Origin: Patescibacteria group bacterium | GTDB taxonomy: Bacteria; Patescibacteriota; Dojkabacteria; JAHIVN01 | Assembly: GCA_043816305.1 (NCBI GenBank) | Contig: JBDRHZ010000022.1 | Location: 1-62,746 of the forward strand | DNA length: 62,746 nt | Reading direction: 5' to 3' | Part shown: piece by piece, positions 6,880-60,439 of the stretch | Numbering within the stretch: the stretch's first letter is position 1 | Layout: the number at the start of each line of letters is the position of its first letter | Notes under the pieces: generated by a model | What the model was told of the DNA's origin: nothing | Seen by the model: only the letters and a program-made list of their open reading frames with translations | Database searches by the model: none | Translations under genes and position numbers: made by a program

Positions 6880-7023
6880 ATGAGTACTCCAGTTCTTGTA
6901 GTAATTATTGTGTTAGCGGCTATTCTAATGGCGTTATCGCTAATTGGGAAGATACGAAAGCTGTTAGCTTGTGGAATAGTGTTAGCTATCGCAGGCTTGA
7001 TAGCATATTTTATGCTAAAATAA
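6880..7023 (+). CDS. Possible small two-helix membrane peptide (47 aa)
   Basis: MSTPVLVVIIVLAAILMALSLIGKIRKLLACGIVLAIAGLIAYFMLK* has two hydrophobic helices around a basic loop. Confidence 0.3.
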   Translation: MSTPVLVVIIVLAAILMALSLIGKIRKLLACGIVLAIAGLIAYFMLK

Positions 7024-7029
7024 CTTTGA

Positions 7030-8223: not shown

Positions 8224-8418
8224 AGTTTAATTCTATTTACTTCTTATGAATAATGCAAACTTTAGGCCGATGAGCTTATGAGTTAGTGAACTGGTGAACA
8301 AATAAACATTCATGCCTATCTGAATACTGACAACTGATTCCCCGTCTGTAAACTTGACATATCAAAAATATATCTCTAAAATATATGATATAGATATAAT
8401 ATATCCGTCCGCTTCCTA

Positions 8419-9219: not shown

Positions 9220-9289
9220 CAGGAATTACTGGTTTGTTTGATTTCCATCAATATTCTATAATATTCCCATAAATTTTTATTCAATTCTG

Positions 9290-10132: not shown

Positions 10133-10317
10133 TAGATAAGTTTCCTTTTGTCGCATTTGGTCTGGGGTTGCTTTAAGTTTGTATACTGACAATATTCTTT
10201 CTCATCATAAGTTTTGATATCTATCGACAAATTCCCCTACTTTTTTTGCAACAAATTTCCTTTTACTGCATAATACTAGTATAGAGTGATGAATTGTATA
10301 AATTAGGTTTGTTATCT

Positions 10318-10905: not shown

Positions 10906-10907
10906 TA

Positions 10908-36412: not shown

Positions 36413-36552
36413 GTCGTAAACCGTAGACTGTAAGCCGTAATCCGTAACCCATAGGCTGTAGGTACAATCGAATATTTGAATAACTGTATACGGGATCACA
36501 GAATACGGATAAAGGAATACAGACTAAGGCTTACGGATTACAGCTTACGATC
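36413..36552. repeat. Long degenerate 7-nt-phased tract (CGTAANC type) running into the umuC stop
   Basis: tcgtaaa ccgtaga ctgtaag ccgtaat ccgtaac ccatagg ctgtagg ... acagaat acggata aaggaat acagact aaggctt acggatt acagctt acgatca. The last units encode the UmuC C-terminal residues. Confidence 0.7.
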
Positions 36553-37835
36553 AACAGTTCTCCCCAATCTGTTGTATATCTTTTTGACACTCTCGTTCGC
36601 TGATACAGCCACGGTTTCCTGATCCCTTCGCTGAGCAATTTTACCTGTCCCCTGCCCCATTTCCTGTTTATGGCGTCGATTGTATTCATCAGAGTTTTTG
36701 CTTTCCCATTAGATTTATCTGATTTGAAGATACTTGTCTGTTTTTGTACTTCCGGCTCGATCCCGGATAAGAGAACACCTGATTGCTTGTAGCGGTAGCC
36801 TTTCTTGAATATGTTCCGCAGAGCAAGCAGTGCATATTTGGTAAGGAGAATTGTGCTGGAGGTCGCTTTAGGAAGTCTGATGTGGTAAGAGTTTGAATAA
36901 TATCCGCCTTTAAATCTGTTCGTTCTGACAAAGACGATCACGATATTTGCCAGAGAATTTTGATTTCTGAGTTTCTCTGAAGCTGTAGCAGTAAAGGAAG
37001 CAATCGCTTCCTCTAGGTCCTGGTAATCTGTCACTTCGCCTCCGAAAGTTCTTGTGGTGCTGATTCCTTTTTGCGGTTGTGGATTGGTATCGAGATCGAA
37101 GCATCTTTCACCGCGCAACTCCAGAACGCATCTTTCTCCAAGCACGGTCATTTTCTTTCTCATGTATTTGCTATCGGCGTGTTTGAGATTTTTTGCGGTA
37201 TAAATCCCTATAGCCTCTAGTTTCTTTGAATACTGTCTTCCCACTCCCCAGATATCTCTTACAGGAATTCTTTCTAAATAATCATCTACTTCCTTATCTA
37301 AAAGTCTTGTGAAGTCTAAAACACCGTTAAGCGATGGATCTTTTTTTGCGATCTCATTTGCCGCTTTTGTAAGCGTCTTGGTCGAGGCGATTCCTATAGA
37401 AACCGGTAGTCCTGTCCACCTTAGAATTGTCTGGCGGATTTTTTGAGAATATGCCTGGTAATCAGATATGTGCAGATTTGAGAATGATAAGAATGCTTCA
37501 TCTATAGAATAGATCTCAATTTCGGGAGTAAATTTTCTTAGAGTTTTCATGACTCTAGCTGACAAATCTGCATAGAGAGGAAAATTTGCCGAAAAAACCT
37601 GGATATTATGCTTTCTTACAAGATCTCTGCATTTGAAAGCAGGCTCAGCCATTTTGACGCCCAGTGCCTTTACTTCATTTGATCTGGCGATGACACAGCC
37701 GTCGTTGTTAGAAAGGACCATGATTGGAATATTATTTAGTTCCGGAGCAAAAACTCTCTCGCATGAAACGTAGAAATTATTGCAGTCGAGAAGAGCATAT
37801 ATCTGTGAGGTATTGGTTGAGCTATTGTTGTTCAC
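36531..37835 (-). CDS. umuC: Y-family translesion DNA polymerase V catalytic subunit UmuC
   Basis: N-terminus YALLDCNNFYVSCERVFAPELNNIPIMVLSNNDGCVIARSNEVKALGVKM is the UmuC signature. umuD lies upstream on the same strand. Confidence 0.9.
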   Translation of the reverse strand: MNNNSSTNTSQIYALLDCNNFYVSCERVFAPELNNIPIMVLSNNDGCVIARSNEVKALGVKMAEPAFKCRDLVRKHNIQVFSANFPLYADLSARVMKTLRKFTPEIEIYSIDEAFLSFSNLHISDYQAYSQKIRQTILRWTGLPVSIGIASTKTLTKAANEIAKKDPSLNGVLDFTRLLDKEVDDYLERIPVRDIWGVGRQYSKKLEAIGIYTAKNLKHADSKYMRKKMTVLGERCVLELRGERCFDLDTNPQPQKGISTTRTFGGEVTDYQDLEEAIASFTATASEKLRNQNSLANIVIVFVRTNRFKGGYYSNSYHIRLPKATSSTILLTKYALLALRNIFKKGYRYKQSGVLLSGIEPEVQKQTSIFKSDKSNGKAKTLMNTIDAINRKWGRGQVKLLSEGIRKPWLYQRTRVSKRYTTDWGELLIVSCNP

Positions 37836-37877
37836 TGTTAGACTGACTTTTTTATGATTTGTGAGTGCCTTCAGCGG

Positions 37878-38237
37878 TCAGCATTCAGCTCTCAGCTTTT
37901 TTATAAACTTTGCCAGCATTTTCTTTACTTCTTGTATGTTTCGAGTTGATTTCAAATAATCATTCTCGTTCAAGTATCCGAGTTGATTTGACAAGAGCAG
38001 AAGATACTCAGTTTCACTTGCTGATCCCATAGAAATCTGAAGAAACCGGGCTAAGTCCTTATCAGTAGATCTTCCGCAGCCCTCTGAGATATTTATTGGA
38101 ACAGAACTGGAGGCTCTCCTTAACTGATTTGTTAGTCCGTAAAGTTCTTCTTTAGGAAAATTCGTTGTTATTGTATAAACTTCGAGTGTGAGCTTATGAG
38201 ATTTTTCCCAAACCTTTAAGTCTCTAAAGTTTTTCAT
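37878..38237 (-). CDS. Four-helix-bundle protein (23S rRNA intervening-sequence / Avd-like family)
   Basis: 119 aa: FRDLKVWEKSHKLTLEVY..T..FPKEELYGLTNQLRRASSSVPINISEG..R.....F..F..IS.GSASE is the family pattern. It is inserted between umuD and umuC. Confidence 0.85.
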   Translation of the reverse strand: MKNFRDLKVWEKSHKLTLEVYTITTNFPKEELYGLTNQLRRASSSVPINISEGCGRSTDKDLARFLQISMGSASETEYLLLLSNQLGYLNENDYLKSTRNIQEVKKMLAKFIKKLRAEC

Positions 38238-38265
38238 ACAGACTTAGATAAAATATAAAGTAGTG

Positions 38266-38712
38266 TTAGATTCTACCAGTAGTGAGCAGATCGCTGACAG
38301 CTGTAAGCTGATTCCTGACTGCTGACAGCCTCTTTATAACAAACGTCACTACCCCCCAAACCTGAAAGTCCATTTCTTCAGTGATCCTGATCGGCTTGAA
38401 ACTGCTGTTTTCTGGGATTAGAAATACTTGTTTCTGGCTGATGCGGATTCTCTTTACAGTAAATTCTCCATCTATAAATCCGATGATGATATTTCCGCTA
38501 CGGGCTTCGAGTGCGCGGTCTACGATCAGAAGATCTCCGTCAGATATGCCGCCATTCTGCATAGAAACTCCCTTTGCTCTAACGAAAAATGTAGCTGCTG
38601 GGTGCTTGATCAGATATTCGTTTAGGTCCAGTTTTCTCTCGCTGAAATCATCTGCAGGGCTGGGAAATCCAGCGGATACAGTTGCTTCTGATAGGATTAT
38701 TCTAGCTGTCAT
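38266..38712 (-). CDS. umuD: UmuD / LexA-like S24 self-cleaving peptidase
   Basis: VSAGFPSPADD, GVSMQNGGISDGDLLIVDR (Ser nucleophile) and TVKR (Lys). The C-terminal about 20 aa are encoded by a CTGACAG-type heptamer tract. Confidence 0.85.
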   Translation of the reverse strand: MTARIILSEATVSAGFPSPADDFSERKLDLNEYLIKHPAATFFVRAKGVSMQNGGISDGDLLIVDRALEARSGNIIIGFIDGEFTVKRIRISQKQVFLIPENSSFKPIRITEEMDFQVWGVVTFVIKRLSAVRNQLTAVSDLLTTGRI

Positions 38713-48962: not shown

Positions 48963-49015
48963 GTATTTTGTATATAGGTACTTTGCTTTTTATAATTTAG
49001 TTATTGTGTTTAGAA

Positions 49016-49987
49016 ATGGGTTATAAGAATTCAATTTTGTTTCTCAATCAGCATAAAAATATAAATGTAAGTATGGCAGGTGGAAAGGGAGCGTCACTCA
49101 GTCAAATGACTCGTGTGGAGATCCCTGTTCCATCAGGGTTTGTTGTTTTAACTGAAGCCTTTAATAAATTTCTTATAGAAGAGAACTTAAGAGAGGAAAT
49201 TAAAAAGCAGCTTTCAATGGTTGATCCGGAATGTATAGAGAGTGTTACGAAGGCAAGTTCAACACTCCGGAATATTATTCACAACAAGCAAGTGTCAAAG
49301 AAATTAAGAGACGAAATTTATGGAGCATATGATAAGTTAGATGCAAAATTTGTCGCGGTAAGATCGAGTGCTACAACAGAAGATAGTAGTACAGCAAGCT
49401 GGGCGGGAGAGTTAGAAACTTTCTTAAATGTAGCAAGGAGTAATGTTATCGATAAGCTTAAGGAGTGTTGGTCATCACTTTTTACGCCACGTGCAATTTT
49501 GTATCGATTTGAAAAGGGTTTGACAAATGATTATGTTGGAGTAGCTGTAGTAGTTCAGGAAATGGTTCAAGCGGAAATCTCAGGTGTTGCTTTTACCACA
49601 CATCCAGTAACAGGGGATAGTGATAAAATACTCATAGAAGCAGGATACGGGCTTGGGGAAGCTATTGTTGGTGGAGCAATTATTCCAGATAACTATATTA
49701 TATCAAAATCAAATTTGGCGATTAAAAATGTATATGTTGGCGAGCAAACGAAAAAATTGGTTAGAGATAAAAGGAAGCAGGATAAATATGGGGGTAATAG
49801 ATGGATCAACCTAGGTGCAAAAGGACTGGAGCAAAAACTATCTAACAGACAAATTATTGAGGCTGCTAAACTGTTCAATAAGATTGAAAATCTTTATAAT
49901 TATCCATGCGATATAGAGTGGGCGATGGAGAATGAAAAACTTTACGTTACACAGAGCAGACCAATTACGACTTTAAAGGCCAGATGA
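49016..49987 (+). CDS. PEP/pyruvate-binding (PPDK_N) ATP-grasp domain protein, stand-alone
   Basis: GGKGASLSQM, VPSGFVV, VAVRSSATTEDSSTASWAGE, VAVVVQEMV and EWA.E...LYVTQSRPIT. It ends right after the nucleotide-binding domain. The ORF track starts at TTG 49004. Confidence 0.85.
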   Translation: MGYKNSILFLNQHKNINVSMAGGKGASLSQMTRVEIPVPSGFVVLTEAFNKFLIEENLREEIKKQLSMVDPECIESVTKASSTLRNIIHNKQVSKKLRDEIYGAYDKLDAKFVAVRSSATTEDSSTASWAGELETFLNVARSNVIDKLKECWSSLFTPRAILYRFEKGLTNDYVGVAVVVQEMVQAEISGVAFTTHPVTGDSDKILIEAGYGLGEAIVGGAIIPDNYIISKSNLAIKNVYVGEQTKKLVRDKRKQDKYGGNRWINLGAKGLEQKLSNRQIIEAAKLFNKIENLYNYPCDIEWAMENEKLYVTQSRPITTLKAR

Positions 49988-50020
49988 GGTATATTTCTAT
50001 AATATTTAACTGAAAGTGAT

Positions 50021-51214
50021 ATGAAGTCCTATCCGGTATCAATAATAATACCTAACTGGAATGGAAAGCATTTTCTTAAACAGAATATGTCCTCTGTCCT
50101 CAACCAGGATTATCCTGTTTATAGTATTTTTCTAGTAGATAATAACTCAAATGATGGATCACGGGATTATATACGTATGATCCAAAAAAAACATCCGACA
50201 AAGATTTCCGTAATAGAAAACAAAACAAACCTTGGATTTACTGGCAGTAATAATATTGCAGTTGAAGAAATTATCACAAATGAGAAGAGTAAATATATAG
50301 TATTTCTAAATAACGATGTAAAAGTGGAAAAAGAATGGCTCTCAAATTTAATTACAGGTTTTACAAAAGAGTCAATAGGTATAGTAACTTCAAAATTGCT
50401 CTACTACTACCCTTATCAGAGAATGACAATATCAGTTGATTTTGAGACGGAAATTAGAGGTATACAAATAGATGATCTTTTGTACCCGGGATTGATATTT
50501 AGTGAGGGGTTCAGGAAAAAAGGTGAACCACTCATGTTACCCCTAAAACTTGAATCGGGTAAAAAGTATTATTTTGCTATCTCATTCAAATCGAAGAAAA
50601 GTTCGACTCAGAAAATCAAAGTAGATTTTGTTGGTGGCCCAATAAGGATAGATTTAGGTAAGGATAGGATAGTATTTAATAAAGCAGGGAATAAAGAAGT
50701 TAAAGTGCAGGGGAAGTATATTATTCAAAATGCAGGGACAAAATTTAATAAAGATAAAAAGCTCTTTGAGGAAAAGAAGATATATGAATTTGATCATGAA
50801 TTAAAATCGCAAATTGTTGATGCGGGTAATGGAGCGGGAATGGCAGTTAGGACGGTTTTGATTAAAAACCTTGGTTCTTTCAAGAAGAAATATTTTGCAT
50901 ATGGAGAAGATACAGAACTTTCCTACCGATTGAAGGTGAACGGTTTTAAGACAAAATTTGTTGCAAACGCAGTAGGATACCACTATCTATCTGGCAGTAG
51001 TGGGAAGAGAATAACTAGTACACAGACATTTTACGGCTCGAGAAATAGGTTATGGTTTATTAGAGAGTACTTTGGTTTCTGGCAATTTGCTTATTACTAT
51101 CTGAGAATGGTAGTACGAACTTTTATTTGGGGGGTGAAGGCGATTTTAGATAAGGAAGCGTATATGTATTTTAAAAGTTATATTAAGGCACTATTGTCAT
51201 CTTTGGGGTTTTAG
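50021..51214 (+). CDS. Family 2 glycosyltransferase
   Basis: VSIIIPNWNG...LNQDYP...FLVDNNSNDGS and FLNNDV motifs. Confidence 0.85.
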   Translation: MKSYPVSIIIPNWNGKHFLKQNMSSVLNQDYPVYSIFLVDNNSNDGSRDYIRMIQKKHPTKISVIENKTNLGFTGSNNIAVEEIITNEKSKYIVFLNNDVKVEKEWLSNLITGFTKESIGIVTSKLLYYYPYQRMTISVDFETEIRGIQIDDLLYPGLIFSEGFRKKGEPLMLPLKLESGKKYYFAISFKSKKSSTQKIKVDFVGGPIRIDLGKDRIVFNKAGNKEVKVQGKYIIQNAGTKFNKDKKLFEEKKIYEFDHELKSQIVDAGNGAGMAVRTVLIKNLGSFKKKYFAYGEDTELSYRLKVNGFKTKFVANAVGYHYLSGSSGKRITSTQTFYGSRNRLWFIREYFGFWQFAYYYLRMVVRTFIWGVKAILDKEAYMYFKSYIKALLSSLGF

Positions 51215-51237
51215 AGTAGTTACTACACTTTATTTTA

Positions 51238-52752
51238 ATGTGTAAACTGGGTTACCGCATGGAAGGTCTCTTCGATTATATTTCTGATCCAACAATTTCC
51301 TATGTTAGGGTAGGCAAACCATACCCTAACTTCTGGGGTGAATCTCACACGCATCCCCATCTTAAATCTTTACATGGAACAAAGGTATCTTACGCGGTGT
51401 ATTTATACTTTAATGGGGATGCGTATTACTTTGTCGATAAAAAGGGCATAGCACGGGTAAAAGAGATAGTTTATAAGAAGTTGCTATTAAAACCAAACCA
51501 TATCTCTCATTGTTTAGAAAAGACAGATTCAGTAATTTCTGAAGGTGAATCTTTTTTTCAGTTTGTACTACCTAACATAAAAAAATATTCAAATGACAAG
51601 ATTGAGCTGATTTCGAAGAAATTCCACAAGCTTCTTCTTCAAATCCAAATGTATGCTGACTCAACATATTACATGTCTGAATCTATCTTAAACGAGAATT
51701 TATTAAAGCGCTTAGAAAGTCATTTCAGTAAGGATTCAGAAAAAATTGGGAAAGTTGTAAAAGTACTTACAGCTTTTGATTCATTGTCTTATCTTGAGAG
51801 AGAAGATTTATCGCTAGCCCAGATTGCTTTGGCTAATGATCAATCTTCTATTATTAACCACATATCCTTATGGAGGCATAAAACCTTTGATTATTGGGGC
51901 CCTGAAACGACAGAAAAAGAATTCTATGATCGACTCAAATCTTTCAGAAAACAGCCTACAAGAACGAGGGCTACTGTAAGTAGATATACAAATGCCAAGA
52001 AAAGCAGACAGAGAATGAAAAAGGGTATTATTAAAAGATATAATCTACCTGGTGATATAGTATTATTGAGTAGGTTAGTATCCCAAGTTGGCTTTTTAAA
52101 TGACACTAAAAAGTATTCTATTACAAGACTTACTTACCTTTTTGACAAATTTCTTGATGAAATTGTAAGGCGTTTTGGTATTGAGAAGGAGTTAATATAT
52201 TATCATTTGCCATTGGAGATTGAGGGGATAGGACGAGGAGATCAACCTGTTTCTGAAAAAGAGCTCAGAGAACGAAGGATGTTATTTGTAATTGTTTTTT
52301 CTGAAGGCAAGGAGATAATGCACACTACTGACAAAGGTAGTCAGATTGCACAAGAATTATTGAAAATTATTGGGACTGATTTAAGACTTGATAGTGCTGA
52401 TGAAGAATCCACAAGTTGCTCCGGCATACCGGCATCCAAGGGAGAATATGAAGGCACTGTAGTTAAAATGTTTTCCCATAAAGATCTCCATAAAGCAAGG
52501 GATGGTATGGTCTTGGTATCTCCCAAAACAACTGTTGACTTTATTTCAGCTTTATATAAAGCAGGGGCAGTAGTAACTGACTATGGTGGTTTGACTTCCC
52601 ACACTGCTATTGTAGCCCGCGAAATGAATATTCCGGGGATTGTAGGAACAAAAACAGCGACAACTGCTTTTTCGGATGGCGATGTAGTGTGTGTTGATGG
52701 GGAGAAGGGAATTGCGAAACTTGTTAAAAAGAGGAGTCACCAAAAACTATAA
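51238..52752 (+). CDS. PEP-utilising-enzyme mobile (swivel phosphohistidine) domain protein with about 380-aa uncharacterised N-terminal domain
   Basis: C-terminus GTVVKM...GMVLVSPKTTVDF...AGAVVTDYGGLTSHTAIVAREMNIPGIVG carries the phosphohistidine signature. Confidence 0.8.
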   Translation: MCKLGYRMEGLFDYISDPTISYVRVGKPYPNFWGESHTHPHLKSLHGTKVSYAVYLYFNGDAYYFVDKKGIARVKEIVYKKLLLKPNHISHCLEKTDSVISEGESFFQFVLPNIKKYSNDKIELISKKFHKLLLQIQMYADSTYYMSESILNENLLKRLESHFSKDSEKIGKVVKVLTAFDSLSYLEREDLSLAQIALANDQSSIINHISLWRHKTFDYWGPETTEKEFYDRLKSFRKQPTRTRATVSRYTNAKKSRQRMKKGIIKRYNLPGDIVLLSRLVSQVGFLNDTKKYSITRLTYLFDKFLDEIVRRFGIEKELIYYHLPLEIEGIGRGDQPVSEKELRERRMLFVIVFSEGKEIMHTTDKGSQIAQELLKIIGTDLRLDSADEESTSCSGIPASKGEYEGTVVKMFSHKDLHKARDGMVLVSPKTTVDFISALYKAGAVVTDYGGLTSHTAIVAREMNIPGIVGTKTATTAFSDGDVVCVDGEKGIAKLVKKRSHQKL

Positions 52753-52822
52753 GTGATGTGACTGTAAATCAAAGAGATAGGTTTAGAAAAGAATTAATGT
52801 ATTAGCTTTTCCGAAAAACGTT

Positions 52823-54286
52823 ATGAATGATTGTGTTTTTGGCTGGCAGGAGAAATCGTCCCTATTAACTATTGAAGCTAATCAAACGGCTCAGATGAAA
52901 GGCATCTCAGATGTTTTTCATGTTGATTTCCAAAATCTTCAATGTTTTTTCTTTAAAGATCAAGCTTATTTCTACTTTGGGAGAGATGATACAGAAAGAT
53001 GGAAAGAAGAAGGCAGGAAGTATCTAGAGAAGACCTATCTTACAAAATTACTGATAGAAACAAAGCAACTACGCACTGCGTTTCGTACTGTTATAAATGA
53101 AATTGAATCAATAAACTTGCAGGGTGCCAGCAATAAAACTCTTCTTGACCTCTTCTTGAAGTATTTTGAAATAGTGGTGGATATAGCTGGTATTTACCAT
53201 GCTTCACAACCAGAAGCATTATTCTTCGTTGACCAGGAGTTAAGGAAACTTTTATCAGGTAAATATACAAAAGAGGAGATGGAAAAACATTTTGTTACTC
53301 TCTCTAGTCCATATGAACTTGATCTTGTACAACGAGAGAAAGTGGAGTGGTTTAAACTACTTAAGGAAGAACCTATTACTGACGAAAAGTATCTTCAACA
53401 CGCTAAAAACTTTGCTGCGTACTTCTTTAATACGTATTCTTTTAAAGAAGCCATTGAGTACCTGAGGGATAAAAAAAATCATACAAATGAATCAGATCTT
53501 GAGGCAGAAATAAAAGAAATTAGACAATATCGTAAAAAAACAAAGAATGAACGGGAAAAGTTATTAAAAGAGCTTCCAACAAAGGTAACATATCTTTCAA
53601 GAGTTTTGCGTAAAGTGAGTGTCGATAGATTTGCACTAAAAGAAGGTTGGCAGGGAGCAGAATTTCTTGCGCTTAATCTGTTTTCAGAGATAGCGAAGAG
53701 AATCAAGATAGACATTAAAGACTTCTTTTACAGCTATGGCAGGAAGGATATAGAGAAGTTTCTTCTAAGTGGCAAAGTTCTCAATGAGAAAGAAGTGAAA
53801 AGAAGGAAAGAGGCACTTTTTATTAAAATAAATAACAAAAATGCTATGCGTCTTGTAGGTGATAAGGCTCTTATCAGAATAAAACGGTTCTTAAGAAGTA
53901 ATATGGCCTCAGGAGATTCTGTCAAAGGTATGGGAGCACAGCAAGGAGTAACAACTGGAAGAGCAAGGATCTTGTTAGTTGAAGATATTTCTTCTTTTGC
54001 CACAGCAGCTAAATGTTTTAAAAAAGGAGAAGTGTTAGTTACAACAATGACTTCTCCAAACATTGTTTCACTCATGAAAAATGCCAGTGGAATTGTCACA
54101 AATGAAGGGGGTATATGCTCCCATGCAGCCATCGTTTCTCGAGAACTAGGAAAACCCTGTGTTGTGGGGACTGGAAATGCAACACAGGTATTTAAGACGG
54201 GGGACTACTTACTAATCGATGCTGGGAAAGGAGAAGTAAAAAAGATAACTAAAGAAGAGTATGAGACGATAAAAAACCTGACCTAA
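52823..54286 (+). CDS. Second PEP-utilising-enzyme mobile-domain protein (paralogous architecture)
   Basis: C-terminus GEVLVTTMTSPNIV...ASGIVTNEGGICSHAAIVSRELGKPCVVG. The N-terminal about 370 aa are uncharacterised. Confidence 0.8.
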   Translation: MNDCVFGWQEKSSLLTIEANQTAQMKGISDVFHVDFQNLQCFFFKDQAYFYFGRDDTERWKEEGRKYLEKTYLTKLLIETKQLRTAFRTVINEIESINLQGASNKTLLDLFLKYFEIVVDIAGIYHASQPEALFFVDQELRKLLSGKYTKEEMEKHFVTLSSPYELDLVQREKVEWFKLLKEEPITDEKYLQHAKNFAAYFFNTYSFKEAIEYLRDKKNHTNESDLEAEIKEIRQYRKKTKNEREKLLKELPTKVTYLSRVLRKVSVDRFALKEGWQGAEFLALNLFSEIAKRIKIDIKDFFYSYGRKDIEKFLLSGKVLNEKEVKRRKEALFIKINNKNAMRLVGDKALIRIKRFLRSNMASGDSVKGMGAQQGVTTGRARILLVEDISSFATAAKCFKKGEVLVTTMTSPNIVSLMKNASGIVTNEGGICSHAAIVSRELGKPCVVGTGNATQVFKTGDYLLIDAGKGEVKKITKEEYETIKNLT

Positions 54287-54417: not shown

Positions 54418-54520
54418 ATGCAAACAGTCCCGTAAGATTTTGCAACTCGGAGGGTTGGAGAAAGATGTTTGGGGTGCTGAGTTCGTTTGGTGAAAACTTA
54501 GTAAAGCTTAGTGTATAGTG
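54418..54520. repeat. Conserved module copy A (degenerate; micro-ORF only from internal ATG 54465..54518)
   Basis: atgcaaacagtcccgtaagattttgcaactcggagggttggagaaagatgttt... Compared with copy E there is a 2-nt length difference after the first ATG. The 3' end overlaps the stop region of the minus-strand ORF 54498..54869. Confidence 0.75.
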
Positions 54521-54869
54521 CAGAAAGCTGGCTAATGAAAATATCGTAAACCCAACAGAATCCAACAAACACTAAAATAACAAAAATTGGTAAGATAGCA
54601 AAAACTACAGTTTGTTTAATGTAATCTCTTTTTTGAACACCTTTTCTCTTAAGTTTTAAGAATTGGAATATTGCACCAATTGCAAATACCGGAATTGCAG
54701 AGAATATAAATAATAAATATAACCAATCTAAATCATGAGCATCTGGATGCATAGACATTTGACTCATGATTCCACAAGAAACTCCAATCGGAAAAAAGAT
54801 AACTGATATTGCAAGACAAGGGTAGAAACACTTAAAGAAAATGTTTTTATCTACTATCAGTTTTTTCAT
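54498..54869 (-). CDS. Small integral membrane protein (cassette ORF)
   Basis: 123 aa with 3-4 hydrophobic helices. Its 3' end runs into module A. Confidence 0.5.
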   Translation of the reverse strand: MKKLIVDKNIFFKCFYPCLAISVIFFPIGVSCGIMSQMSMHPDAHDLDWLYLLFIFSAIPVFAIGAIFQFLKLKRKGVQKRDYIKQTVVFAILPIFVILVFVGFCWVYDIFISQLSALYTKLY

Positions 54870-55018
54870 TAGTATTAGGAGTTAAAAATAGTAATTATCT
54901 CATTATATTAATAACTGGAAATTAATAAAAGCGAAGTTCCTATATCTTGTGGAGAAGTAATTTGTATCTGAGAAGAAGATGTGTCAACTATGCTGCTATT
55001 ACGGTGTAAAATCAAAGA

Positions 55019-55112
55019 GTGCACAGTCCCGTAAGACTTTGCAACTCGGAGGTGTGGAGGAAGATGTTTGTATTACTGAATGAGTTTTCGTTGAGTGGAG
55101 TATAGTGGATAC
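55019..55112. repeat. Conserved module copy B (micro-ORF 55019..55105 +, GTG start; internal ATG 55064)
   Basis: gtgcacagtcccgtaagactttgcaactcggaggtgtggaggaagatgtttgtattactgaatgagttttcgttgagtggagtatagtggata. The encoded peptide is VHSPVRLCNSEVWRKMFVLLNEFSLSGV*. Confidence 0.85.
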
Positions 55113-55334
55113 CTGTCCGTCGTAGCTTTAGCGAAGACGGACAGTTGCTTGCCCCGTATAGCTGAACGTAGCGAAGCTTGTACGGGGGAACTTTCCTGAA
55201 ATTTAACATTCACTCTACCCTGCTCTACTTGAGTTTTAGCGGTTCCGATCCATCTTCGTTCTTCGACAAGCTCAGAACTTCGATGGACATGTGTCCCGCT
55301 TGCCCCGTATACGAGCATAGCGAGTTGTACGGGG
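55113..55334. repeat. Cluster of REP-like hairpins
   Basis: CTGTCCGTC(55113-21)/GACGGACAG(55136-44). Two copies of GCTTGCCCCGTATA...TTGTACGGGG follow (stems 55152-58/55181-87 and 55303-09/55328-34). Confidence 0.7.
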
Positions 55335-55362
55335 TTTACTCTAAAATCGAAAAACTTAAGAG

Positions 55363-55377
55363 AGTATAGTGGACAGT
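55363..55377. repeat. Left copy of perfect 15-bp direct repeat AGTATAGTGGACAGT
   Basis: Identical to 55947-55961. It shares GTATAGTGGA with the 3' ends of the modules. Confidence 0.9.
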
Positions 55378-55443
55378 CGGAACTTTCAATAGATTTGTGT
55401 TAAGATATCAATATAATTTATATAAATCTATTGGAATCCAATT

Positions 55444-55953
55444 ATGAAAAACGAAGAAAAAACAAGAAAAATTATAAAAGATAACTTATACATGACAATT
55501 TCAGTATCAGACCTTAAGGGTAATCCTTGGATTGCAAACATCTATTTTGCTTGTGATTCCAAGTACACATTTTATTGGTATTCACCGAGAGATTCTATTC
55601 ATTCGAAGTATATAAATAAAAATCCTAATATTGCAATCTCAATATTCGACTCAAGAGCAACAGGAGATGACGTTGATGCAGTGTACATAAAAGCTAAGGC
55701 AGAGATAGTGACTAAAAAGATTGAACTTATCAAAGGCCTTACAATTTATGGGAAGAAAATGCTAAAAACTGGATTTGTAAAGTCAAAATCTCAAGTAGGA
55801 AGATTTATTAAGCAGTATAAAGATTTTCAGGGGATATCTAAAATCCGAATGTATAAAGCAATACCTGTGCAAATCTGGAAACTAGCTCCTTCAGAAATAT
55901 TTAATGATAAATTTATCGACAGCAGATTGGAAGTAGATATAAATGAAGTATAG
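55444..55953 (+). CDS. Pyridoxamine 5'-phosphate oxidase-like FMN-binding split-barrel protein (cassette ORF)
   Basis: 169 aa: LYMTISVSD.KGNPW.ANIYFA.D....FYW.S.....HS..I..NP.IAISIF follows the PNPOx-like pattern. Its stop codon lies inside the right 15-bp repeat. Confidence 0.65.
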   Translation: MKNEEKTRKIIKDNLYMTISVSDLKGNPWIANIYFACDSKYTFYWYSPRDSIHSKYINKNPNIAISIFDSRATGDDVDAVYIKAKAEIVTKKIELIKGLTIYGKKMLKTGFVKSKSQVGRFIKQYKDFQGISKIRMYKAIPVQIWKLAPSEIFNDKFIDSRLEVDINEV

Positions 55954-55961
55954 TGGACAGT
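55947..55961. repeat. Right copy of perfect 15-bp direct repeat AGTATAGTGGACAGT
   Basis: Identical to 55363-55377, 584 bp away. Confidence 0.9.
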
Positions 55962-55992
55962 TGAGAGAATGTATTCTTATAGTGCAAATATC

Positions 55993-56359
55993 TTATGGAA
56001 GACGCTCTATCTTAAAAGTACATATACCTTGAGGTCTTAATGTATAAACTTCAATCCCCCATGTAAATTCTTCTCCTACTGGTTCTAGTCTTTGTACAAA
56101 TTCACCCGTCGGTATATGGTGTAACAACAACAGCACGTGTGACAACTTCAAAAGTTTTACCAGTAGCATCAAAGATTTCACTTACTGAAGAATCTAGATG
56201 CACACCTCTAAAGACATCTTGTTCCGAAGGACCAGCAATACTAAAACCGATTAAAGTAAATTCTCTTTCTAAGGTACCCCTTACAGAAACTATTATATTA
56301 TCTGGTAAACTCTGAATGGTTTCAACTTCCATTCCAACTTCAAGTTTTTCTGATTCCAT
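55993..56359 (-). pseudogene. Probable frameshifted cassette ORF
   Basis: The 85-aa ORF (56102..56359) ends ...VVTPYTDG*. The overlapping frame continues with protein-like EFVQRLEPVGEEFTWGIEVYTLRPQGICTFKIERLP* (to 55993). A single indel near 56100 would join them. Confidence 0.35.
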
Positions 56360-56449
56360 GTTTAATGATTTTCAGAGATAAAAGGAGAGAATTTAGCAGT
56401 AAGCTATTATATCAACCGAATATACAACTTAGCAGGGTGAAAATGGAGC

Positions 56450-56495
56450 ATAGCGGATACTTGTCTGTCGTAGCTTTAGCGGAGACAGAAAGTCA
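56450..56495. repeat. Partial sixth module (3' end plus hairpin only)
   Basis: ggagcatagcggatacttgtctgtcgtagctttagcggagacagaaagt parallels ggagtatagtggatacctgtccgtcgtagctttagcgaagacggacagt at 55097-55146. The stem retains pairing through a C-G to T-A double change. Confidence 0.7.
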
Positions 56496-56531
56496 GAGAT
56501 TTCTCTATCTAAGTTTACGTTTTACATTAAA

Positions 56532-56630
56532 ATGTGCAACAATTCCGTAAGACTTTGCAACTCGAAAGTGTGGAAACAACTGTTTATGTTACTGAATGAG
56601 TTTTCGTTAAAAGGAGTATAGATGATAAAG
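56532..56630. repeat. Conserved module copy C (micro-ORF 56532..56621 +)
   Basis: The encoded peptide is MCNNSVRLCNSKVWKQLFMLLNEFSLKGV*. A 3-nt indel relative to copies B and E keeps the frame. It lies directly 3' of the minus-strand ORF 56643..57203. Confidence 0.85.
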
Positions 56631-56642
56631 TCGGAAAAGATA

Positions 56643-57203
56643 TTAGTATTTACCAATTCGGTACTTCACAGGTAGAATCCTTAGAAATCTAACCATAGAT
56701 AGGTACTTATGGTCTGTTTTGCCATACATGCGAACTAAATACTGCCGCATCTTTTCTTCGGACCACCCGAGCACACTTGGATCTTTATAATCAAACCAAG
56801 GGGAAGTGACATCTAATTTATCTTCCAGTACCTTTGAATTTACTGGAGCTAGCCATACATTCCATTTTCCAGCTCTTTCTTCAGGAGGAGCTTTACTAAT
56901 TGTATCTAAGGGGCTCAAAAAAAACGTCGTACCGGCTACTACTAATGTCCAATCTCCTGCAGTTGAATCAGTAGCAATTAAACCTATTTCATCTATAATA
57001 GGCTGATAGAACCCTCCCCTTGCTCCGTGCGCCACCATAACATATTGTTTTCCTTCTTCCAGAGTTACGCCTGCCTTCTCAGCTAGTTCAACTATGAGTG
57101 GATCGTCCCACATTCTTATTTCTCCACCTTGGCTCCATCTTTGTGCTATATCCTTCAATTCGTTTAGTGTAACTTTGTTAACGAATATCTCCTCTTCTGG
57201 CAT
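56643..57203 (-). CDS. Orphan 186-aa protein (cassette ORF)
   Basis: Intact ORF with no motif. Its stop lies about 12 nt from module C. Confidence 0.5.
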   Translation of the reverse strand: MPEEEIFVNKVTLNELKDIAQRWSQGGEIRMWDDPLIVELAEKAGVTLEEGKQYVMVAHGARGGFYQPIIDEIGLIATDSTAGDWTLVVAGTTFFLSPLDTISKAPPEERAGKWNVWLAPVNSKVLEDKLDVTSPWFDYKDPSVLGWSEEKMRQYLVRMYGKTDHKYLSMVRFLRILPVKYRIGKY

Positions 57204-57403
57204 AAATATCTCGCTAAAGAAAAAAGTTTTAATGGATTATACCAGAAATTGAGAAAGTTCGTATCTAATATGAAAATGAAGCCTAATGAATAGCTGAGTT
57301 GCTAAAATTCTTTTTTTTAAAGAAAATTGTTTGTAGAGCTTCCAGATAATTGAACTAGAACCAATTTAGATATATGATATAAAGGTAAATTTATTAATAT
57401 CGT

Positions 57404-57976
57404 TTGTTTGTTATGACCACAGAAACAAATTCTCCTGATGTAAAGTGGGAAGGTCATGATTTAGTTGTGCAAGGCCCTCCAGGAGCCATAAAAGAAAAAT
57501 TTTATCAACTATTACGTGAACGAGTTAGTATTGTTGACGATAGAGAATTTAAATTGATGTTCCCAGACTTACATATCGCAGCGATTAAGAGCAGGATTGT
57601 AATTGTCGAGGGAAATTCTAAAAAGAGAATCAAAGGAATAGGAATATATGTAAATAAAGATGATTTTGTTTTTGGAGATGATGATTATTCAGATCTAATA
57701 GATATTGTTGTTACACATGAAATTGCAGAACTCTGGTATTTCTCAAAGACAGGTTATTCTCTATCCCCTGCACCTGAAGCTCTAGCAGAAGACCGGTTAA
57801 ATATTGCGCATGAATTAGCGTTAAGAGATGAATATAGAGTTGCATTTGAATTGGGTAAGGCCGAAAGATTACTTGAATTTATGGAGAGACACCATCGGGA
57901 AAAGCATCCTTCAGAATCATCATTAGAGGAAAACAGAAGGACCTATAATCTCGTTAAGAAACGCTGGGAGAATTGA
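57404..57976 (+). CDS. Orphan 190-aa protein (cassette ORF)
   Basis: Intact ORF. It contains VVTHEIAELWYF (HExxE, not a canonical HExxH). Confidence 0.5.
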   Translation: MFVMTTETNSPDVKWEGHDLVVQGPPGAIKEKFYQLLRERVSIVDDREFKLMFPDLHIAAIKSRIVIVEGNSKKRIKGIGIYVNKDDFVFGDDDYSDLIDIVVTHEIAELWYFSKTGYSLSPAPEALAEDRLNIAHELALRDEYRVAFELGKAERLLEFMERHHREKHPSESSLEENRRTYNLVKKRWEN

Positions 57977-57995
57977 TTATGTCATGCTTATAAAA

Positions 57996-58103
57996 ATGCG
58001 CAATCCTGTAAGACTTTGCAACAGTAAGGGGCGGAAAAGTTTGTTTCTTATGTTAAGCTCATTTACTAAACTCGATTCTAGCCTCAAAGCCCAGCAGTCC
58101 TAG
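57996..58103. repeat. Conserved module copy D, most divergent (micro-ORF 57996..58103 +)
   Basis: The encoded peptide is MRNPVRLCNSKGRKSLFLMLSSFTKLDSSLKAQQS*. Its TAG (58101-03) overlaps the TAG of the minus-strand ORF 58100..58588 within CTAG. Confidence 0.75.
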
Positions 58104-58588
58104 TTACTCTGACAAAACATACCGTTTGGGTATGTACTCGCTGGGTATACAGTTGTATTCTCGATTTGATCTGTGCACACAATGATATGTGTTGGGTTGT
58201 AAACATCATCAACCCCTACTCTATACTCTGTTACACCATCTGGGTCGACTGGGATAGTTTGCATGTATCCTGTCGAAATAATTTGATCAAGACTTGTGGC
58301 ATCAATTCCTTCACCAACAATGCTATCAGCAGGCGTTATCTCTGTTACACCAGTTTCTGTTAATCCTAATGCAAGAAAGGGATCTGGCGCCTGAAGACCC
58401 TCCCGTGCTAACCACTTCCCAATAGCTGCATTTATTGCTGCAACATCTTGTGTTCTTCTAGAATTCTTGGCATCTGGTGTTCCTCCTTGGCTACCATAAT
58501 CTAATTCCGGAAAGATGACTTCTTCTATCTTCCAAGAGTACCCCTTGATCCAATCACCTACCTCCTTTAGCTTAAACTCAACATTCAC
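58100..58588 (-). CDS. Orphan ORF, probably the C-terminal part of a TAG-interrupted gene
   Basis: 162 aa starting at GTG with no SD. It is in the same frame as 58613..58888, separated by TAG plus 8 sense codons. Confidence 0.4.
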   Translation of the reverse strand: MNVEFKLKEVGDWIKGYSWKIEEVIFPELDYGSQGGTPDAKNSRRTQDVAAINAAIGKWLAREGLQAPDPFLALGLTETGVTEITPADSIVGEGIDATSLDQIISTGYMQTIPVDPDGVTEYRVGVDDVYNPTHIIVCTDQIENTTVYPASTYPNGMFCQSN

Positions 58589-58612
58589 CTTTGTTATTAG
58601 CAGATCGATTTC

Positions 58613-58888
58613 CTAAACAACAGTGGCCTCGTCTGCATTAATCCTTTCTTCCACAAAAACAGATACAAGATGAGACCTTTCTTCCTGAAGTTCATTAAGA
58701 GTCTGCTCTTCTGAGCTTAATAGGTATTGTGCGTTGTCCGAAGAATTTCCCTCATTGATGTTATCCAGGTATTCTCTAACAACATCCTTAGGTGATGTAT
58801 CAGGGAGATTCAGAACAAATGTTTTTAGCCCAATCAAGCCTCCAACAAAGAGTAGCACAAGAAGTACAACTACTAGTATCTTTTTCAT
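58613..58888 (-). CDS. Orphan ORF with N-terminal membrane anchor, probably the N-terminal part of a TAG-interrupted gene
   Basis: The likely start is MKKILVVVLLVLLFVGGLIGL (ATG at 58888); the ORF track extends to 59017. It ends in TAG at 58613-15. Confidence 0.4.
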   Translation of the reverse strand: MKKILVVVLLVLLFVGGLIGLKTFVLNLPDTSPKDVVREYLDNINEGNSSDNAQYLLSSEEQTLNELQEERSHLVSVFVEERINADEATVV

Positions 58889-59051
58889 GCGATTGAATAT
58901 TGATAGATTAATTTGAGGGAAAATAAGTTCTGATTGTCCTGTTTTTGCGTTCCTCGGTGCATATTGAAGAACTATTAAGTATACGGGAATTTTAACATAT
59001 GGATAAGAATAATGCACTAAAAAGTTGATAATTTCATATAGAAATTAAAAA

Positions 59052-59147
59052 ATGCACAGTCCCGTAAGACTTTGCAACTCGGAGGTGTGGAAGCAGATGT
59101 TTATATTACTGAATGAATTGTCGTAGAGTGAAGCATAGAGGATAAAG
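59052..59147. repeat. Conserved module copy E (micro-ORF 59052..59126 +)
   Basis: The encoded peptide is MHSPVRLCNSEVWKQMFILLNELS*. On the minus strand it reads GCAAAGTCTTACGGGACTGTGC plus TTTTTT. It lies about 30 nt 3' of the minus-strand ORF 59178..59936. Confidence 0.85.
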
Positions 59148-59177
59148 TAGGAGACTATATTTCGAGAGAAGTCTCTC

Positions 59178-59936
59178 TTAATTTAAGTATATTCGAAGAG
59201 GCTTTCCAGGATAAACAAACGTTAATGTAGTTTCATCTAATCTATCATCAGAATACGGTGTATTCAATATAACCGAAAGCTCAGGAGCTCTAATTACACG
59301 ATAGTAAGCTTGAATCAACTGCGCTACGTTTCCTCCTCTAACAAGTAAGGACGTTTCAAGGTCTAATGCAAAGTTAACAATTGTGAGAACCTGTCCGCTT
59401 CCATCATCGTTATGCTCTCCGTAAAAAGGTCTGTTCAAAAACACATGGGTAACAACACTTCTTTTTCCAAAAGGACTCGCCCATCCTTCTCCCAGTCCTA
59501 AGCTTTCAAGTTCTACATTCGATGCAGGACCTAAGGATGTCCTCCCTACTAGTGTTCGAGAGGGACTATATCCGAATATTTTTAATAGGGCTCCAATCTC
59601 CAAATCAGTTAACTGTCCCACTGGACTCCCGTCTGAAATATATGTTAGTAAGCAAACCTCGCCCCTAGGCATTCTGACAGTTAGTGTCGTTGCTGAAGCA
59701 ATATCATAAGCAGTGATTTTTAACATTGAGTGAATTATCATCCTCCTTACCGCATCAGTAGTTCGTTCTAAGTCTTCTGTTAACATAAGATCTAATTTAT
59801 CTGCAGTAGTAACAGTAGGTCTACTTTGGGCAACTGTAGCTACAACTACTCCTGAAGCTAGAACTGCAGTCTCTAAAGTTGAATTTGCAATTCCTAATGT
59901 TTCTTCCGCCTGTACTATCATGCTAGTTTTATTCAA
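59178..59936 (-). CDS. Orphan 252-aa protein (cassette ORF nearest the tRNA)
   Basis: Intact ORF with no motif. Confidence 0.5.
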   Translation of the reverse strand: MNKTSMIVQAEETLGIANSTLETAVLASGVVVATVAQSRPTVTTADKLDLMLTEDLERTTDAVRRMIIHSMLKITAYDIASATTLTVRMPRGEVCLLTYISDGSPVGQLTDLEIGALLKIFGYSPSRTLVGRTSLGPASNVELESLGLGEGWASPFGKRSVVTHVFLNRPFYGEHNDDGSGQVLTIVNFALDLETSLLVRGGNVAQLIQAYYRVIRAPELSVILNTPYSDDRLDETTLTFVYPGKPLRIYLN

Positions 59937-60058
59937 AATATTGTGGGGAGTTTCGTTACATTATATCAGTTCTTTTTGTACAAACTTCAAGATGGTGTAC
60001 AGGTTGTATACAGAGTCGAAAATACCTTAGCCGAAGGTTAACATCTCATGTTAAAAAA

Positions 60059-60131
60059 TGCCGAGGGCCAGACTTGAACTGGCGACACTGCGATTTTCAG
60101 TCGCATGCTCTACCAACTGAGCTACCTCGGC
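60059..60131 (-). tRNA. tRNA-Phe (anticodon GAA)
   Basis: The minus strand reads GCCGAGG-TA-GCTCAGTTGGTAGAGC-A-TGCGA-CTGAAAA-TCGCA-GTGTC-GCCAG-TTCAAGT-CTGGC-CCTCGGC-A. The full cloverleaf folds by hand. CCA is not encoded and a T-run follows. Confidence 0.95.
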
Positions 60132-60178
60132 CTTACAAAGATCCTGCATTTTTAACGATGCTATTATTCTAGCTCTAC

Positions 60179-60203
60179 TCCCGCTTCGACAGACTCAGCG
60201 GGA
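60179..60203. repeat. REP-like hairpin TCCCGCT...CAGCGGGA (related copy at 33676-33690)
   Basis: tcccgcttcgacagactcagcggga compared with tcccgctcagcggga. More hairpins (CTAGCC/GGCTAG, TCCGCC/GGCGGA) lie at 60267-60297. Confidence 0.5.
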
Positions 60204-60439
60204 TTAATTCGACTATGAATTTTACTTCACTTCGTTTGTAAAATCCAAGATCTCATTGAGCAACTGCTAGCCAGAGGCTAGTCCGCCTTTGGCGGAAGCT
60301 GCCTCGGCTAAGATCATTTACCAATTGTTCAATGTACACGTATTACTTGTAAAAAGCAATGTCTGAGGCAGATTATACACCGGTTTGATTATTTATTGCA
60401 ATTTTGAAGTAGGTTTAAATATGCTAGAATCTTGACATA

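Follow-up and report, generated by a model that had tools for sequence, protein, structure and literature searches.

What are the homogeneous repeats that separate unrelated small genes beside a tRNA-Phe gene in a genome of the Dojkabacteria lineage, and what kind of process could have placed them there? We addressed this question on a 62,746-nucleotide (nt) contig of a Patescibacteria group bacterium (JBDRHZ010000022.1 of assembly GCA_043816305.1), referred to below at its full length as the window, in which five direct, co-oriented modules of ~100 nt (A–E) and one remnant lie between genes for phosphoenolpyruvate (PEP)-utilizers and tRNA-Phe. The locus is real, non-random and unusual, and the frame that fits it best is the accretion of islands or cassettes at the ends of tRNA and transfer-messenger RNA (tmRNA) genes, together t(m)RNA genes, and not that of integrons. 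Within this frame, we consider it about an even call that the array arose by tandem accretion of small integrase-less cassettes at such gene ends, the modules being att-type repeats with a displaced flank.

An initial annotation, made from the letters alone, had placed five copies of one module in the window, and all five were recovered by a repeat search, by a 17-mer count and by a hidden Markov model (HMM). The repeat search returned a 55-nt family with same-strand copies at 54416, 55015, 56531, 57992 and 59048 (spacings 599, 1516, 1461 and 1056 nt), as well as a 103-nt family that groups A, B, C and E. For the 17-mer CCGTAAGACTTTGCAAC, five matches with up to 3 mismatches were counted, where 0.12 are expected and 0 of 100 shuffled sequences reach five; at the same tolerance, the 17-mer occurs nowhere in the 62.7-kb window beyond the five modules. 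Using nhmmer, the module HMM scored the five copies at E-values from 1e-21 to 5e-28, and the most similar pair, B and E, is 88-93% identical over 100 nt. The annotation was also correct in its view of the surroundings. Modules A, C, D and E lie 3′ of minus-strand open reading frames (ORFs), at or just past their stop codons, and the array indeed adjoins tRNA-Phe. This tRNA-Phe(GAA) gene (60059-60131, minus strand), the sole Rfam or ARAGORN match in the window, turns its 3′ end towards the array, which starts 28 nt past that end on the same strand as all repeats.

Is the whole module the conserved unit? Each module consists of a ~27-nt core (minus strand AGTTCCGACTTTGTCCACTATRCTCCA) and ~75 nt of flank, and the core alone is common to other genomes, the remaining ~75 nt being confined to this array. 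An HMM of the 100-nt module found no match outside the window in 326 kb of related loci, and an exact scan with a 24-nt degenerate module pattern gave 0 matches in GTDB genomes and 0 in JGI metagenomes; the module is private to the array. The annotation had proposed a scan for more copies, and what the module did not return, the core did, in four other metagenomic arrays (L010, L014, L022 and L026). L010 was found among contigs carrying homologs of cassette proteins, and every small ORF in it ends at a repeat, AGTTCCAACTTTGTCCACTATGCT, which corresponds, as reverse complement, to the 3′ end of the window module extended by a few bases. When metagenomes were scanned with the core, L022, L014 and a 30-kb contig came up, and L026 is an 18.7-kb part of the latter; since the samples that yielded L026 also yielded the window's own contigs, it may belong to the same genome. 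A core HMM detected 23 sites at E<=0.05 in 101 kb of sequence (the four loci and the window), with the consensus AgTTCCgACttTGTCCACTATgCTCca. In the window, cores lie at 55111, 55384, 55963, 56459, 56636 and 59152, with a weak one at 54530, all on the minus strand.

All cores within a locus lie on one strand (7/7, 5/5, 5/5, 3/3 and 3/3; 23/23 overall), an arrangement expected by chance at ~2^-18. In 7 cases the core starts -1 to 25 nt from the end of an upstream ORF on its own strand. The sequence after the core is specific to the cassette and often contains a TGnTATAAT box followed by the next ORF, and cassette sizes range from 0.1 to 2.5 kb. Reversed genes were found between array-oriented cores: the PNPOx gene in the window, a 246-amino-acid (aa) and a 240-aa ORF in L026 and a 125-aa ORF in L010. 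Core orientation thus tracks the array and is independent of the direction of the enclosed gene. As an observation on larger genes, L022 encodes at 1232-9392 two giant surface proteins of 881 and 963 aa, paralogs whose N- and C-termini are nearly identical, as well as a 2-hydroxyacid-dehydrogenase-like protein, and each of these three genes is preceded by a core within a longer repeat (..GAATTCTTGAAGAAAGTTCCGACAATGTCCACTATGCTCCACC), so that cores punctuate large genes, too.

The boundaries of a cassette are best seen where the same gene occurs in different contexts. The cassette nearest the tRNA (59178-59990, minus strand) comprises a 252-aa ORF (59178-59936; called as 247 aa), its own promoter and a 5′ region, and homologs of the gene are present in L010 and in a further contig, L009, with different neighbours, which makes three neighbourhoods. 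The three-way homology begins ~60-70 nt upstream of the start codon, runs to the core just past the stop codon and then decays; its end falls on the core each time (window ~59161, L009 ~1037, L010 ~3391). The protein family (P0004-P0006 and P0008-P0013) has 7 representatives among 1.84 billion sequences and shows the invariant motifs GLGEGWxxPF and SLLVRGG. We considered this protein as a hidden recombinase and rejected the idea, as it has no Pfam, NCBIfam, PHROGs, PADLOC or PDB sequence match and its AlphaFold model is poor (predicted local distance difference test score, pLDDT, 42). The other cargo conforms to the description of the intervening ORFs as unrelated and orphan-like in the initial annotation: in Pfam, only PNPOx is significant, with EamA and DUF4878 weak, and each of the two ORFs that were searched has two remote homologs in a set of 5.8 billion proteins. 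Between lineages, the core retains roughly 85-90% identity, and shared cassette proteins only 56-62%. For a non-coding sequence of 27 nt to be conserved beside such divergent proteins, a sequence-specific reader is needed.

Some cassettes contain no ORF and hold a structured segment of ~200–290 nt in its place. In the window, three of the five perfect GC-rich hairpins of the entire 62 kb fall into the 250-nt block between module B and position 55364, and the predicted fold of the segment has a minimum free energy (MFE) of -99.6 and a z-score of -3.8. A segment HMM scored the window copy at E 6e-79, this copy is 83-88% identical to four copies in L026, and at least nine copies are spread over the window, L026 (four to five), L010 (twice) and L009 (partial). 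The segment always stands between two complete cores, in the order core, conserved scaffold with variable GC-rich hairpins, core, and the two flanking sites, both complete at 27 nt, differ at 2-3 positions. On the minus strand of the window, the unit opens with a left-hand core, coreL (55360-55384, AGTTCCGACTGTCCACTATACTCTC, core E 1.7e-5), continues through the segment itself (55112-55359, with the loop motif GAGCTTGTCGA at 55263-55273) and closes with module B (55019-55112, E 5e-28), whose core at 55096-55111, followed by the extension, is at the same time the right-hand core (coreR) of the segment. The remnant, described in the initial annotation as a 3′-only piece of the module, is real (56444-56493, 86% identical to 55096-55145); it is better understood as the last ~16 nt of a module, i.e. 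the core, joined to the first GC-rich hairpin of the block after B. In viral contigs, the core pattern gave 0 matches, and the 17-mer and segment patterns gave chance matches only. The segment was also tried as a degraded tmRNA, which was dropped, since the similarity is limited to the core and ARAGORN finds nothing.

As a separate observation, a hairpin with a conserved 11-nt loop, GAG(C/T)(T/C)TGTCGA, occurs in the window (55263-55273 and 60186-60196, minus strand), in L009 (1064), in L010 (3430 and 3977) and in L026 (9614). The stems of these hairpins differ (GTTCT/AGAAC, CCCGCT/AGCGGG, ATCAT/ATGAT, CCC/GGG), and exact copies of the loop were found inside these arrays only, always on the cassette strand. 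One of them belongs to the strongly structured region immediately 5′ of tRNA-Phe (60132-60330, minus strand; loop motif GAGTCTGTCGA at 60186-60196; MFE -70.5, z -5.5; no Rfam match), which is related to the unit that follows the tmRNA gene, ssrA, in L026 and is repeated there. The two have an invariant 10-mer in common, GCTCAATGAG, and a covarying hairpin, CCGCC/GGCGG versus CTGCC/GGCAG. This region could be an undescribed non-coding RNA or an att-arm-like element.

How do the arrays relate to t(m)RNA genes? L026 carries a tmRNA gene of 475 nt (14309-14783, minus strand; RF00023, 119 bits, E 7e-47) on the strand of its cores and ~0.9 kb upstream of the first of them. The 3′-terminal 18-mer of this ssrA gene (GATTCCCACCGTCTCCAT) has three more copies in the L026 array, matching at 18/18, 17/18 and 17/18 positions; the copies lie at 14132-14149, 11839-11856 and 9561-9578. 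The first repeat follows the tmRNA at a distance of ~160 nt, which delimits a 177-nt 'mini-island' that consists of the terminator hairpin plus one structured piece. Such direct repeats of the ssrA 3′ end are the classical signature of elements integrated into ssrA. Moreover, the ssrA terminator hairpin with ~100 nt of flank is repeated twice in L026 at 90-92% identity, and in both repeats the core GTATCCACTATGCTCCAT occupies the place of the tmRNA 3′ end, the homology starting inside ..CTCCAT. A MAFFT alignment brought the five window modules into register with these ssrA 3′-end units: the core falls on the tmRNA 3′ end, and the invariant GCAAAGTC.TT of the module on the 3′ arm of the terminator hairpin of ssrA. 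Compared with the ssrA 18-mer, the left half of the core agrees at 11/18 positions for the consensus (hand count) and, for the L026-9762 variant, at 13/18 (BLAST alignment: 13/16). Each half of the core terminates in ...TCCA, which we take to be the acceptor end typical of tmRNA and tRNA-Ala. Compared with islands in tRNA genes (tDNAs), an intact t(m)RNA gene whose 3′ end faces the island is present in the window (tRNA-Phe) as well as in L026 (tmRNA); displaced, co-oriented fragments of the cognate 3′ end are present in L026 for ssrA and absent from the window; an integrase gene for each island was found in neither. In Rfam 15, module, core and structured segment had no match and the window island gave nothing beyond the tRNA at E<=5, and in L026 the tmRNA stood alone at E<=1, save for weak microRNA-model matches below threshold that fall on the terminator hairpin of ssrA and on its two copies.

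Based on these repeats and their neighbours, accretion at t(m)RNA ends would proceed as follows. Small circular cassettes would insert serially and site-specifically at t(m)RNA ends and at existing cores, and the array would have grown just downstream of the tRNA-Phe 3′ end in a Dojkabacteria-like bacterium of the candidate phyla radiation (CPR). An att-type core would be left at each junction, and the junctions in the window would in addition retain a ~75-nt flank descended from a tmRNA-type 3′ flank or terminator. The cassettes of the window array measure 0.1-1.5 kb; most would bring one or two near-orphan genes together with their own promoter, and one would be ORF-less. The recombinase would act in trans and be encoded outside the array, in which case the cassettes would be non-autonomous ('cis-mobilizable') or fixed relics; cores that bound cassettes and the lack of any integration function found are features of cis-mobilizable elements. 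The sequence-specific reader of the core would be this recombinase, whose site must match the conserved t(m)RNA-like end. We infer that recombination and not duplication built the array, that the crossover lay in or near CTCCAT, and what kind of enzyme was involved. A more far-reaching proposal, which we put forward tentatively and hold to be possible at best, is that Dojkabacteria-like CPR bacteria possess a previously undescribed system of gene-cassette capture. In such a system, a trans-acting recombinase would read a ~27-nt core without symmetry that either stems from the tmRNA acceptor end or mimics it, and would stack sub-kilobase, promoter-bearing cassettes, some of them ORF-less with a structured RNA-like segment, at t(m)RNA 3′ ends. 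Bacteria with minimal genomes would thereby have evolved an integron-like platform independently of IntI and attC.

Several results weigh against accretion at t(m)RNA ends. No 3′ fragment of tRNA-Phe is repeated in the window array, and the canonical direct-repeat signature of tDNA fragments is therefore absent there; the cores resemble the ssrA 3′ end (11-13/18) without being copies. A search of the window ORFs for recombinase, transposase and HUH domains found none even at E<=0.1, which bears out the statement of the initial annotation that the window contains no recombinase gene, and the linked recombinase or HUH enzyme that it had proposed to look for did not appear in the annotated parts of L010 and L026 either, where no recombinase or integrase was found (the ORFs of L022 and L014 were judged by eye only). 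The divergence of the modules shows no gradient with distance from the tRNA, the most diverged copy being D, the second from it. Independent assemblies are 100% identical to the window, with no population polymorphism visible, and the cassettes are far smaller than typical genomic islands. Finally, dyad symmetry is not evident in the core, a lack that would be unusual in sites recognised by tyrosine or serine recombinases. The missing tRNA-Phe fragment, recombinase, polymorphism, divergence gradient and dyad symmetry are the reasons why we rate the model no higher than about even. A dif/Xer-like site was likewise considered and ruled out on reading, given the lack of dyad symmetry and of TTATG-type arms.

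In the same context, two independent contigs of the same population (ENA ERZ27247128), both 100% identical to the window, end 13 nt apart within the PNPOx ORF (55545-55559). This population is present in the samples ENA ERZ27247128 / SRR6514274 and JGI 3300014656. As the contig ends lie in the ORF and not in a repeat, the break may reflect a drop in coverage or strain variation in that reversed cassette; junction polymorphism was rejected, because the assemblies match the window and merely stop 13 nt apart.

Could the repeats be regulatory punctuation instead of recombination sites? The module, or elsewhere the core with its flank, would then be a shared 3′ end or terminator combined with an upstream promoter, and the genes would be shuffled, lost or duplicated by ordinary homologous recombination between the repeats without any dedicated recombinase, in agreement with the fact that none was found; the promoter-stem-loop (PeSL) cassettes of T4-type phages have been proposed to work in this manner. 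The hairpin of the module bears directly on this account. On the minus strand, where the module follows the ORF, it can form a hairpin and then runs into T-rich sequence, and the terminator-like appearance noted in the initial annotation stands insofar as the hairpin is formable in most copies (83% of cells paired). However, 0 pairs are changed on both sides among the 5 copies, copy C has a degraded hairpin and none of the modules was called in a simple scan for terminators; a separate reading of the sequence in terms of sigma-70 promoters or terminators had support no better than chance. Extended -10-like boxes (TGnTATAAT) do lie 18-31 nt past several cores, and the 88-93% identity of B and E over 100 nt is sufficient for RecA-dependent exchange. 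Yet core orientation follows the array, so that reversed genes are bracketed by array-oriented cores, the conservation of the core relative to the cassette proteins implies a sequence-specific reader and not mere homology, and the direct repeats of the ssrA 3′ end in L026 are left unexplained. We regard regulatory punctuation as unlikely. Even less probable, and by a wide measure, is that the module encodes plus-strand small proteins of 24-39 aa (e.g. E: MHSPVRLCNSEVWKQMFILLNELS) or a minus-strand anti-Shine-Dalgarno small RNA, convergent with each variable gene. The small ORF was attractive at first: an in-frame ATG or GTG with an open frame exists in 4 of the 5 copies, indels measure +3 and +15 nt, copy D changes Ser TCG to AGT, and a plus-strand GGAGGTG is followed by ATG 9 nt on, its complement lying on the minus strand. 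The substitution pattern, which looks non-coding, ruled against it. Substitutions fall on the three codon positions as 67/46/67, without bias to the third, and most of them alter the amino acid (B versus E: 5 nt, 4 aa); copy A is frameshifted past its ATG, the antisense frame is equally open, and other genomes conserve the core and not the putative ORF. A conserved fold is absent.

Two further explanations also invoke mobility, one by transposition and one by an integron. A core-targeting non-autonomous transposon, similar to miniature inverted-repeat (MITE) or palindrome-associated (PATE) transposable elements and served by an IS200/IS605-type HUH enzyme or an RNA-guided IS110-type enzyme, would turn the segment and the modules into insertions and the doubled cores into target duplications. 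The ORF-less segment, multi-copy (at least nine) and hairpin-rich, does lie between cores that have a ~12-nt block in common (TCCACTATRCTC), GC-rich hairpins are otherwise rare in the window (5 in 62 kb, 3 of them in the segment), the hairpin with the conserved 11-nt loop and differing stems recurs in these arrays only, and co-orientation would suit single-strand transposition. But the flanking cores are complete 27-nt sites with differences at 2-3 positions and hence not exact short target duplications, and gene cassettes are bounded in the same way without transposon ends. No transposase was found in any locus (L022 and L014 ORFs by eye only), and there is no Rfam match to HEARO or omega RNAs, group II introns or other mobile RNAs. 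We consider such a transposon improbable. Is the locus, then, a true integron, with the modules as attC sites folded as single strands and an IntI-like integrase elsewhere, as in clusters of attC sites lacking integron-integrases (CALINs)? The likeness to a super-integron cassette array drawn in the initial annotation holds for the cassette boundaries, i.e. the uniform co-orientation of the 23 cores, the enclosure of genes in either direction and the occurrence of the 252-aa gene in three contexts. Other features that fit are the units of an ORF followed by a repeat, the homogeneity of these ~100-nt repeats, the orphan cargo and the presence of ORF-less cassettes, and in some copies the left half of the core finds a short inverted match, GACTTTG/CAAAGTC, in the invariant 17-mer. 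The likeness fails for the attC palindrome, the R''/R' consensus and IntI. The annotation had itself remarked that the repeat is not an imperfect palindrome, and an attC-like palindrome was rejected statistically: the downstream inverted partner is non-significant for 27 of 29 cores, and module folds are on a par with shuffled sequence on both strands; minus-strand z-scores run from -0.5 to +1.7, and among the plus-strand folds only that of copy A is notable (z -2.3). The boxes R'' RYYYAAC and R' GTTRRRY are absent as a pair; TTCCGAC/TTCCAAC and GTTGCAA match them partly and, by reading, are not mutually complementary. No Phage_integrase domain of an IntI-type tyrosine recombinase was found in the window ORFs or in the gene tables of L010 and L026, and no intI gene was found. 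In addition, the core is conserved in sequence across lineages, whereas attC conserves structure and not sequence, and the cassettes have their own promoters. The integron explanation is largely refuted, and we assign it a very low probability.

Does accretion at t(m)RNA ends have a precedent? The initial annotation held that no described element class matches the organisation, which is too strong in view of the ssrA islands of Dehalococcoides (McMurdie et al. 2011, PMC3146451) and the Islander principle (PMC4383910). The tandem ssrA islands of Dehalococcoides are the closest precedent: they show 20-bp direct repeats with ~85 bp of extra conservation around each, and some members without integration genes have been interpreted as cis-mobilizable or accreted (PMC3146451). 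Like them, the arrays described here occur in a streamlined genome, in tandem downstream of a small-RNA gene, with direct repeats that all point one way and are akin to its 3′ end, conservation around the repeats over a similar length, members that lack integration genes and strain-specific cargo; L026 even has the literal 18-mer repeats of the ssrA 3′ end. Unlike them, the cassettes measure 0.1-2.5 kb versus about 10-30 kb, the neighbour in the window is tRNA-Phe and the repeats are not its fragments, true ssrA fragments are interspersed with a second repeat, the core, which outnumbers them, ORF-less structured cassettes occur, and no DsiB/CcrB-type or other recombinase was found in the arrays (the link to CcrB, the recombinase of staphylococcal cassette chromosome (SCC) elements, is cited in PMC3146451). 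Islander rests on the principle that the island restores the tDNA; tandem arrays have been described, tmRNA is the most enriched target, and a call presupposes, for each island, an integrase gene and a fragment of the cognate tDNA (PMC4383910). Islands of this type resemble our case in the position of the array 3′ of a tDNA, in repeats on the tDNA strand and in the possibility of tandem arrays, and the window array differs from them in having neither a cognate tDNA fragment nor an integrase.

Integrons and CALINs, the latter being arrays without a nearby integrase, have small and mostly single-ORF cassettes, an ORF followed by a repeat of ~60-140 nt, homogeneity within the array, orphan cargo and occasional reversed or ORF-less cassettes in common with the arrays studied here. 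They are set apart by the attC palindrome with its R''/R' boxes and by IntI, and the arrays in turn by a core conserved across lineages, cassettes with their own promoters and a position at t(m)RNA gene ends. In staphylococci, composite SCC islands form at rlmH (orfX) by serial insertion at one site, with short direct att repeats between the elements, and recombinase-less 'pseudo-SCC' members are mobilised in trans. Short direct repeats and recombinase-less members are found in both, and serial insertion at one chromosomal site would be a further likeness; unlike in the window array, SCC elements, which extend over kilobases, target a protein-coding gene at its 3′ end, and at least one member carries Ccr. 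PeSL 'mobile regulatory cassettes' in the hyperplastic regions of T4-type phages are a further parallel: repeats of ~50-100 nt, made of a stem-loop and a promoter, separate orphan ORFs, and shuffling between the repeats has been proposed. Conserved short repeats between unrelated orphan ORFs are the likeness. PeSLs, unlike the window array, reside in phage genomes with all genes co-oriented with the repeats and have no link to t(m)RNA genes, and the repeat orientation here is independent of gene orientation. Very small cassettes, the lack of any recombinase found, the second and more abundant core repeat, ORF-less structured cassettes and the CPR host set the arrays apart from the described cases.

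CPR bacteria, or Patescibacteria, have very small genomes that are thought to be poor in mobile elements, and the turnover of their accessory genes is poorly understood. If accretion at t(m)RNA ends is correct, cassette arrays at these ends in several related lineages would provide a concrete mechanism of gene flux for CPR bacteria, and the 27-nt core would be a new site of site-specific recombination whose enzyme could be sought. If the arrays are fixed relics only, the result would be a modest extension of the known island traffic at t(m)RNA genes. In practical terms, hypervariable regions and assembly break-points of these metagenome-assembled genomes (MAGs) can be recognised by the core motif.

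The remaining layout of the window array, read from the distal end towards the tRNA, is as follows. Module A (54418-54530, minus strand, E 5e-24), the most distal, has a weak core at 54513-54530 (core E 16) that overlaps the end of a 123-aa ORF and is followed by the ~75-nt array-specific extension. Beyond module B and the structured segment, the PNPOx-like gene (ORF 55444-55953; PF01243 E 4.5e-7) forms with its own upstream region a reversed, plus-strand cassette (55385-55943) with cores on both sides, one of which (55944-55963, minus strand, core E 0.025) overlaps its stop codon. Correspondingly, the 12-mer GTATAGTGGAYA from the 3′ end of the module (plus strand) recurs with 0 mismatches at 55364 and 55948 and so flanks this gene. 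The next cassette (55993-56359, minus strand) has an 85-aa ORF, possibly frameshifted, with a second overlapping frame at 55993-56181. On the minus strand, it is preceded by the remnant (56443-56493), in which the core at 56443-56459 and the first hairpin of the structured segment are followed by a promoter-like box, TGATATAAT, for the 85-aa ORF.

Module C (56532-56636, minus strand) comprises a core at 56613-56636 (core E 2e-4), which starts 6 nt past the stop codon of a 186-aa ORF, and the extension. This ORF (56643-57203, minus strand) and a 190-aa ORF (57404-57976, plus strand) make up a two-gene cassette (56643-57976); the two are divergent, have no family assignment and no core between them. 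In module D (57996-58103, minus strand, E 1e-21), the most diverged copy, the extension is recognisable and the core was not detected. It is followed by a cassette (58100-59017, minus strand) with a 134-aa and a 162-aa ORF in different frames, which are either two genes or one broken gene. Module E (59052-59152, minus strand, E 2e-27) has its core at 59129-59152 (core E 1.6e-3), starting 25 nt past the stop codon of the 252-aa ORF, and then the extension. Past the cassette of that ORF, a possible degenerate core (ATTTTCGACTCTGTATAC..TACACCAT; 59996-60030, minus strand) lies 28 nt from the tRNA-Phe 3′ end; it was seen by eye only and is below the threshold of the core HMM.

The host context was examined through the RNase J gene beside the locus, which is 87% identical at the aa level to that of a Candidatus Dojkabacteria MAG. 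Synteny with this MAG stops right after RNase J, and this nearest relative has neither module nor core; a short match to its contig L005 lies inside an unrelated gene and was dismissed as chance. The rest of the window is ordinary chromosome, with genes for UvrA, UvrC, FtsEX, a Y-family polymerase, an S24 peptidase and a class II aminoacyl-tRNA synthetase. Some minor observations were made along the way. In L026, a 75-aa ORF with a GIY-YIG domain (1400-1627) is found ~6.6 kb past the point where the core array ends distally, in a region of small accessory-type genes (TrmB, acetyltransferase, APH, CYTH) without cores. At 49004-54286 of the window, a stand-alone PPDK_N ORF (327 aa) and a family-2 glycosyltransferase gene are followed by two tandem ORFs of ~490-500 aa, in which the C-terminal PEP-utilizers mobile domain is the sole recognised domain, an unusual arrangement. 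A Y-family DNA polymerase gene (IMS domains and DUF4113) close to an S24 LexA/UmuD-like peptidase gene (36531-38712) has the appearance of an SOS or mutagenesis-type pair. At 10294-12343, a sigma-70 family gene of the extracytoplasmic function (ECF) type (203 aa) overlaps the start of an unassigned 490-aa ORF, the product of which may be its anti-sigma partner.

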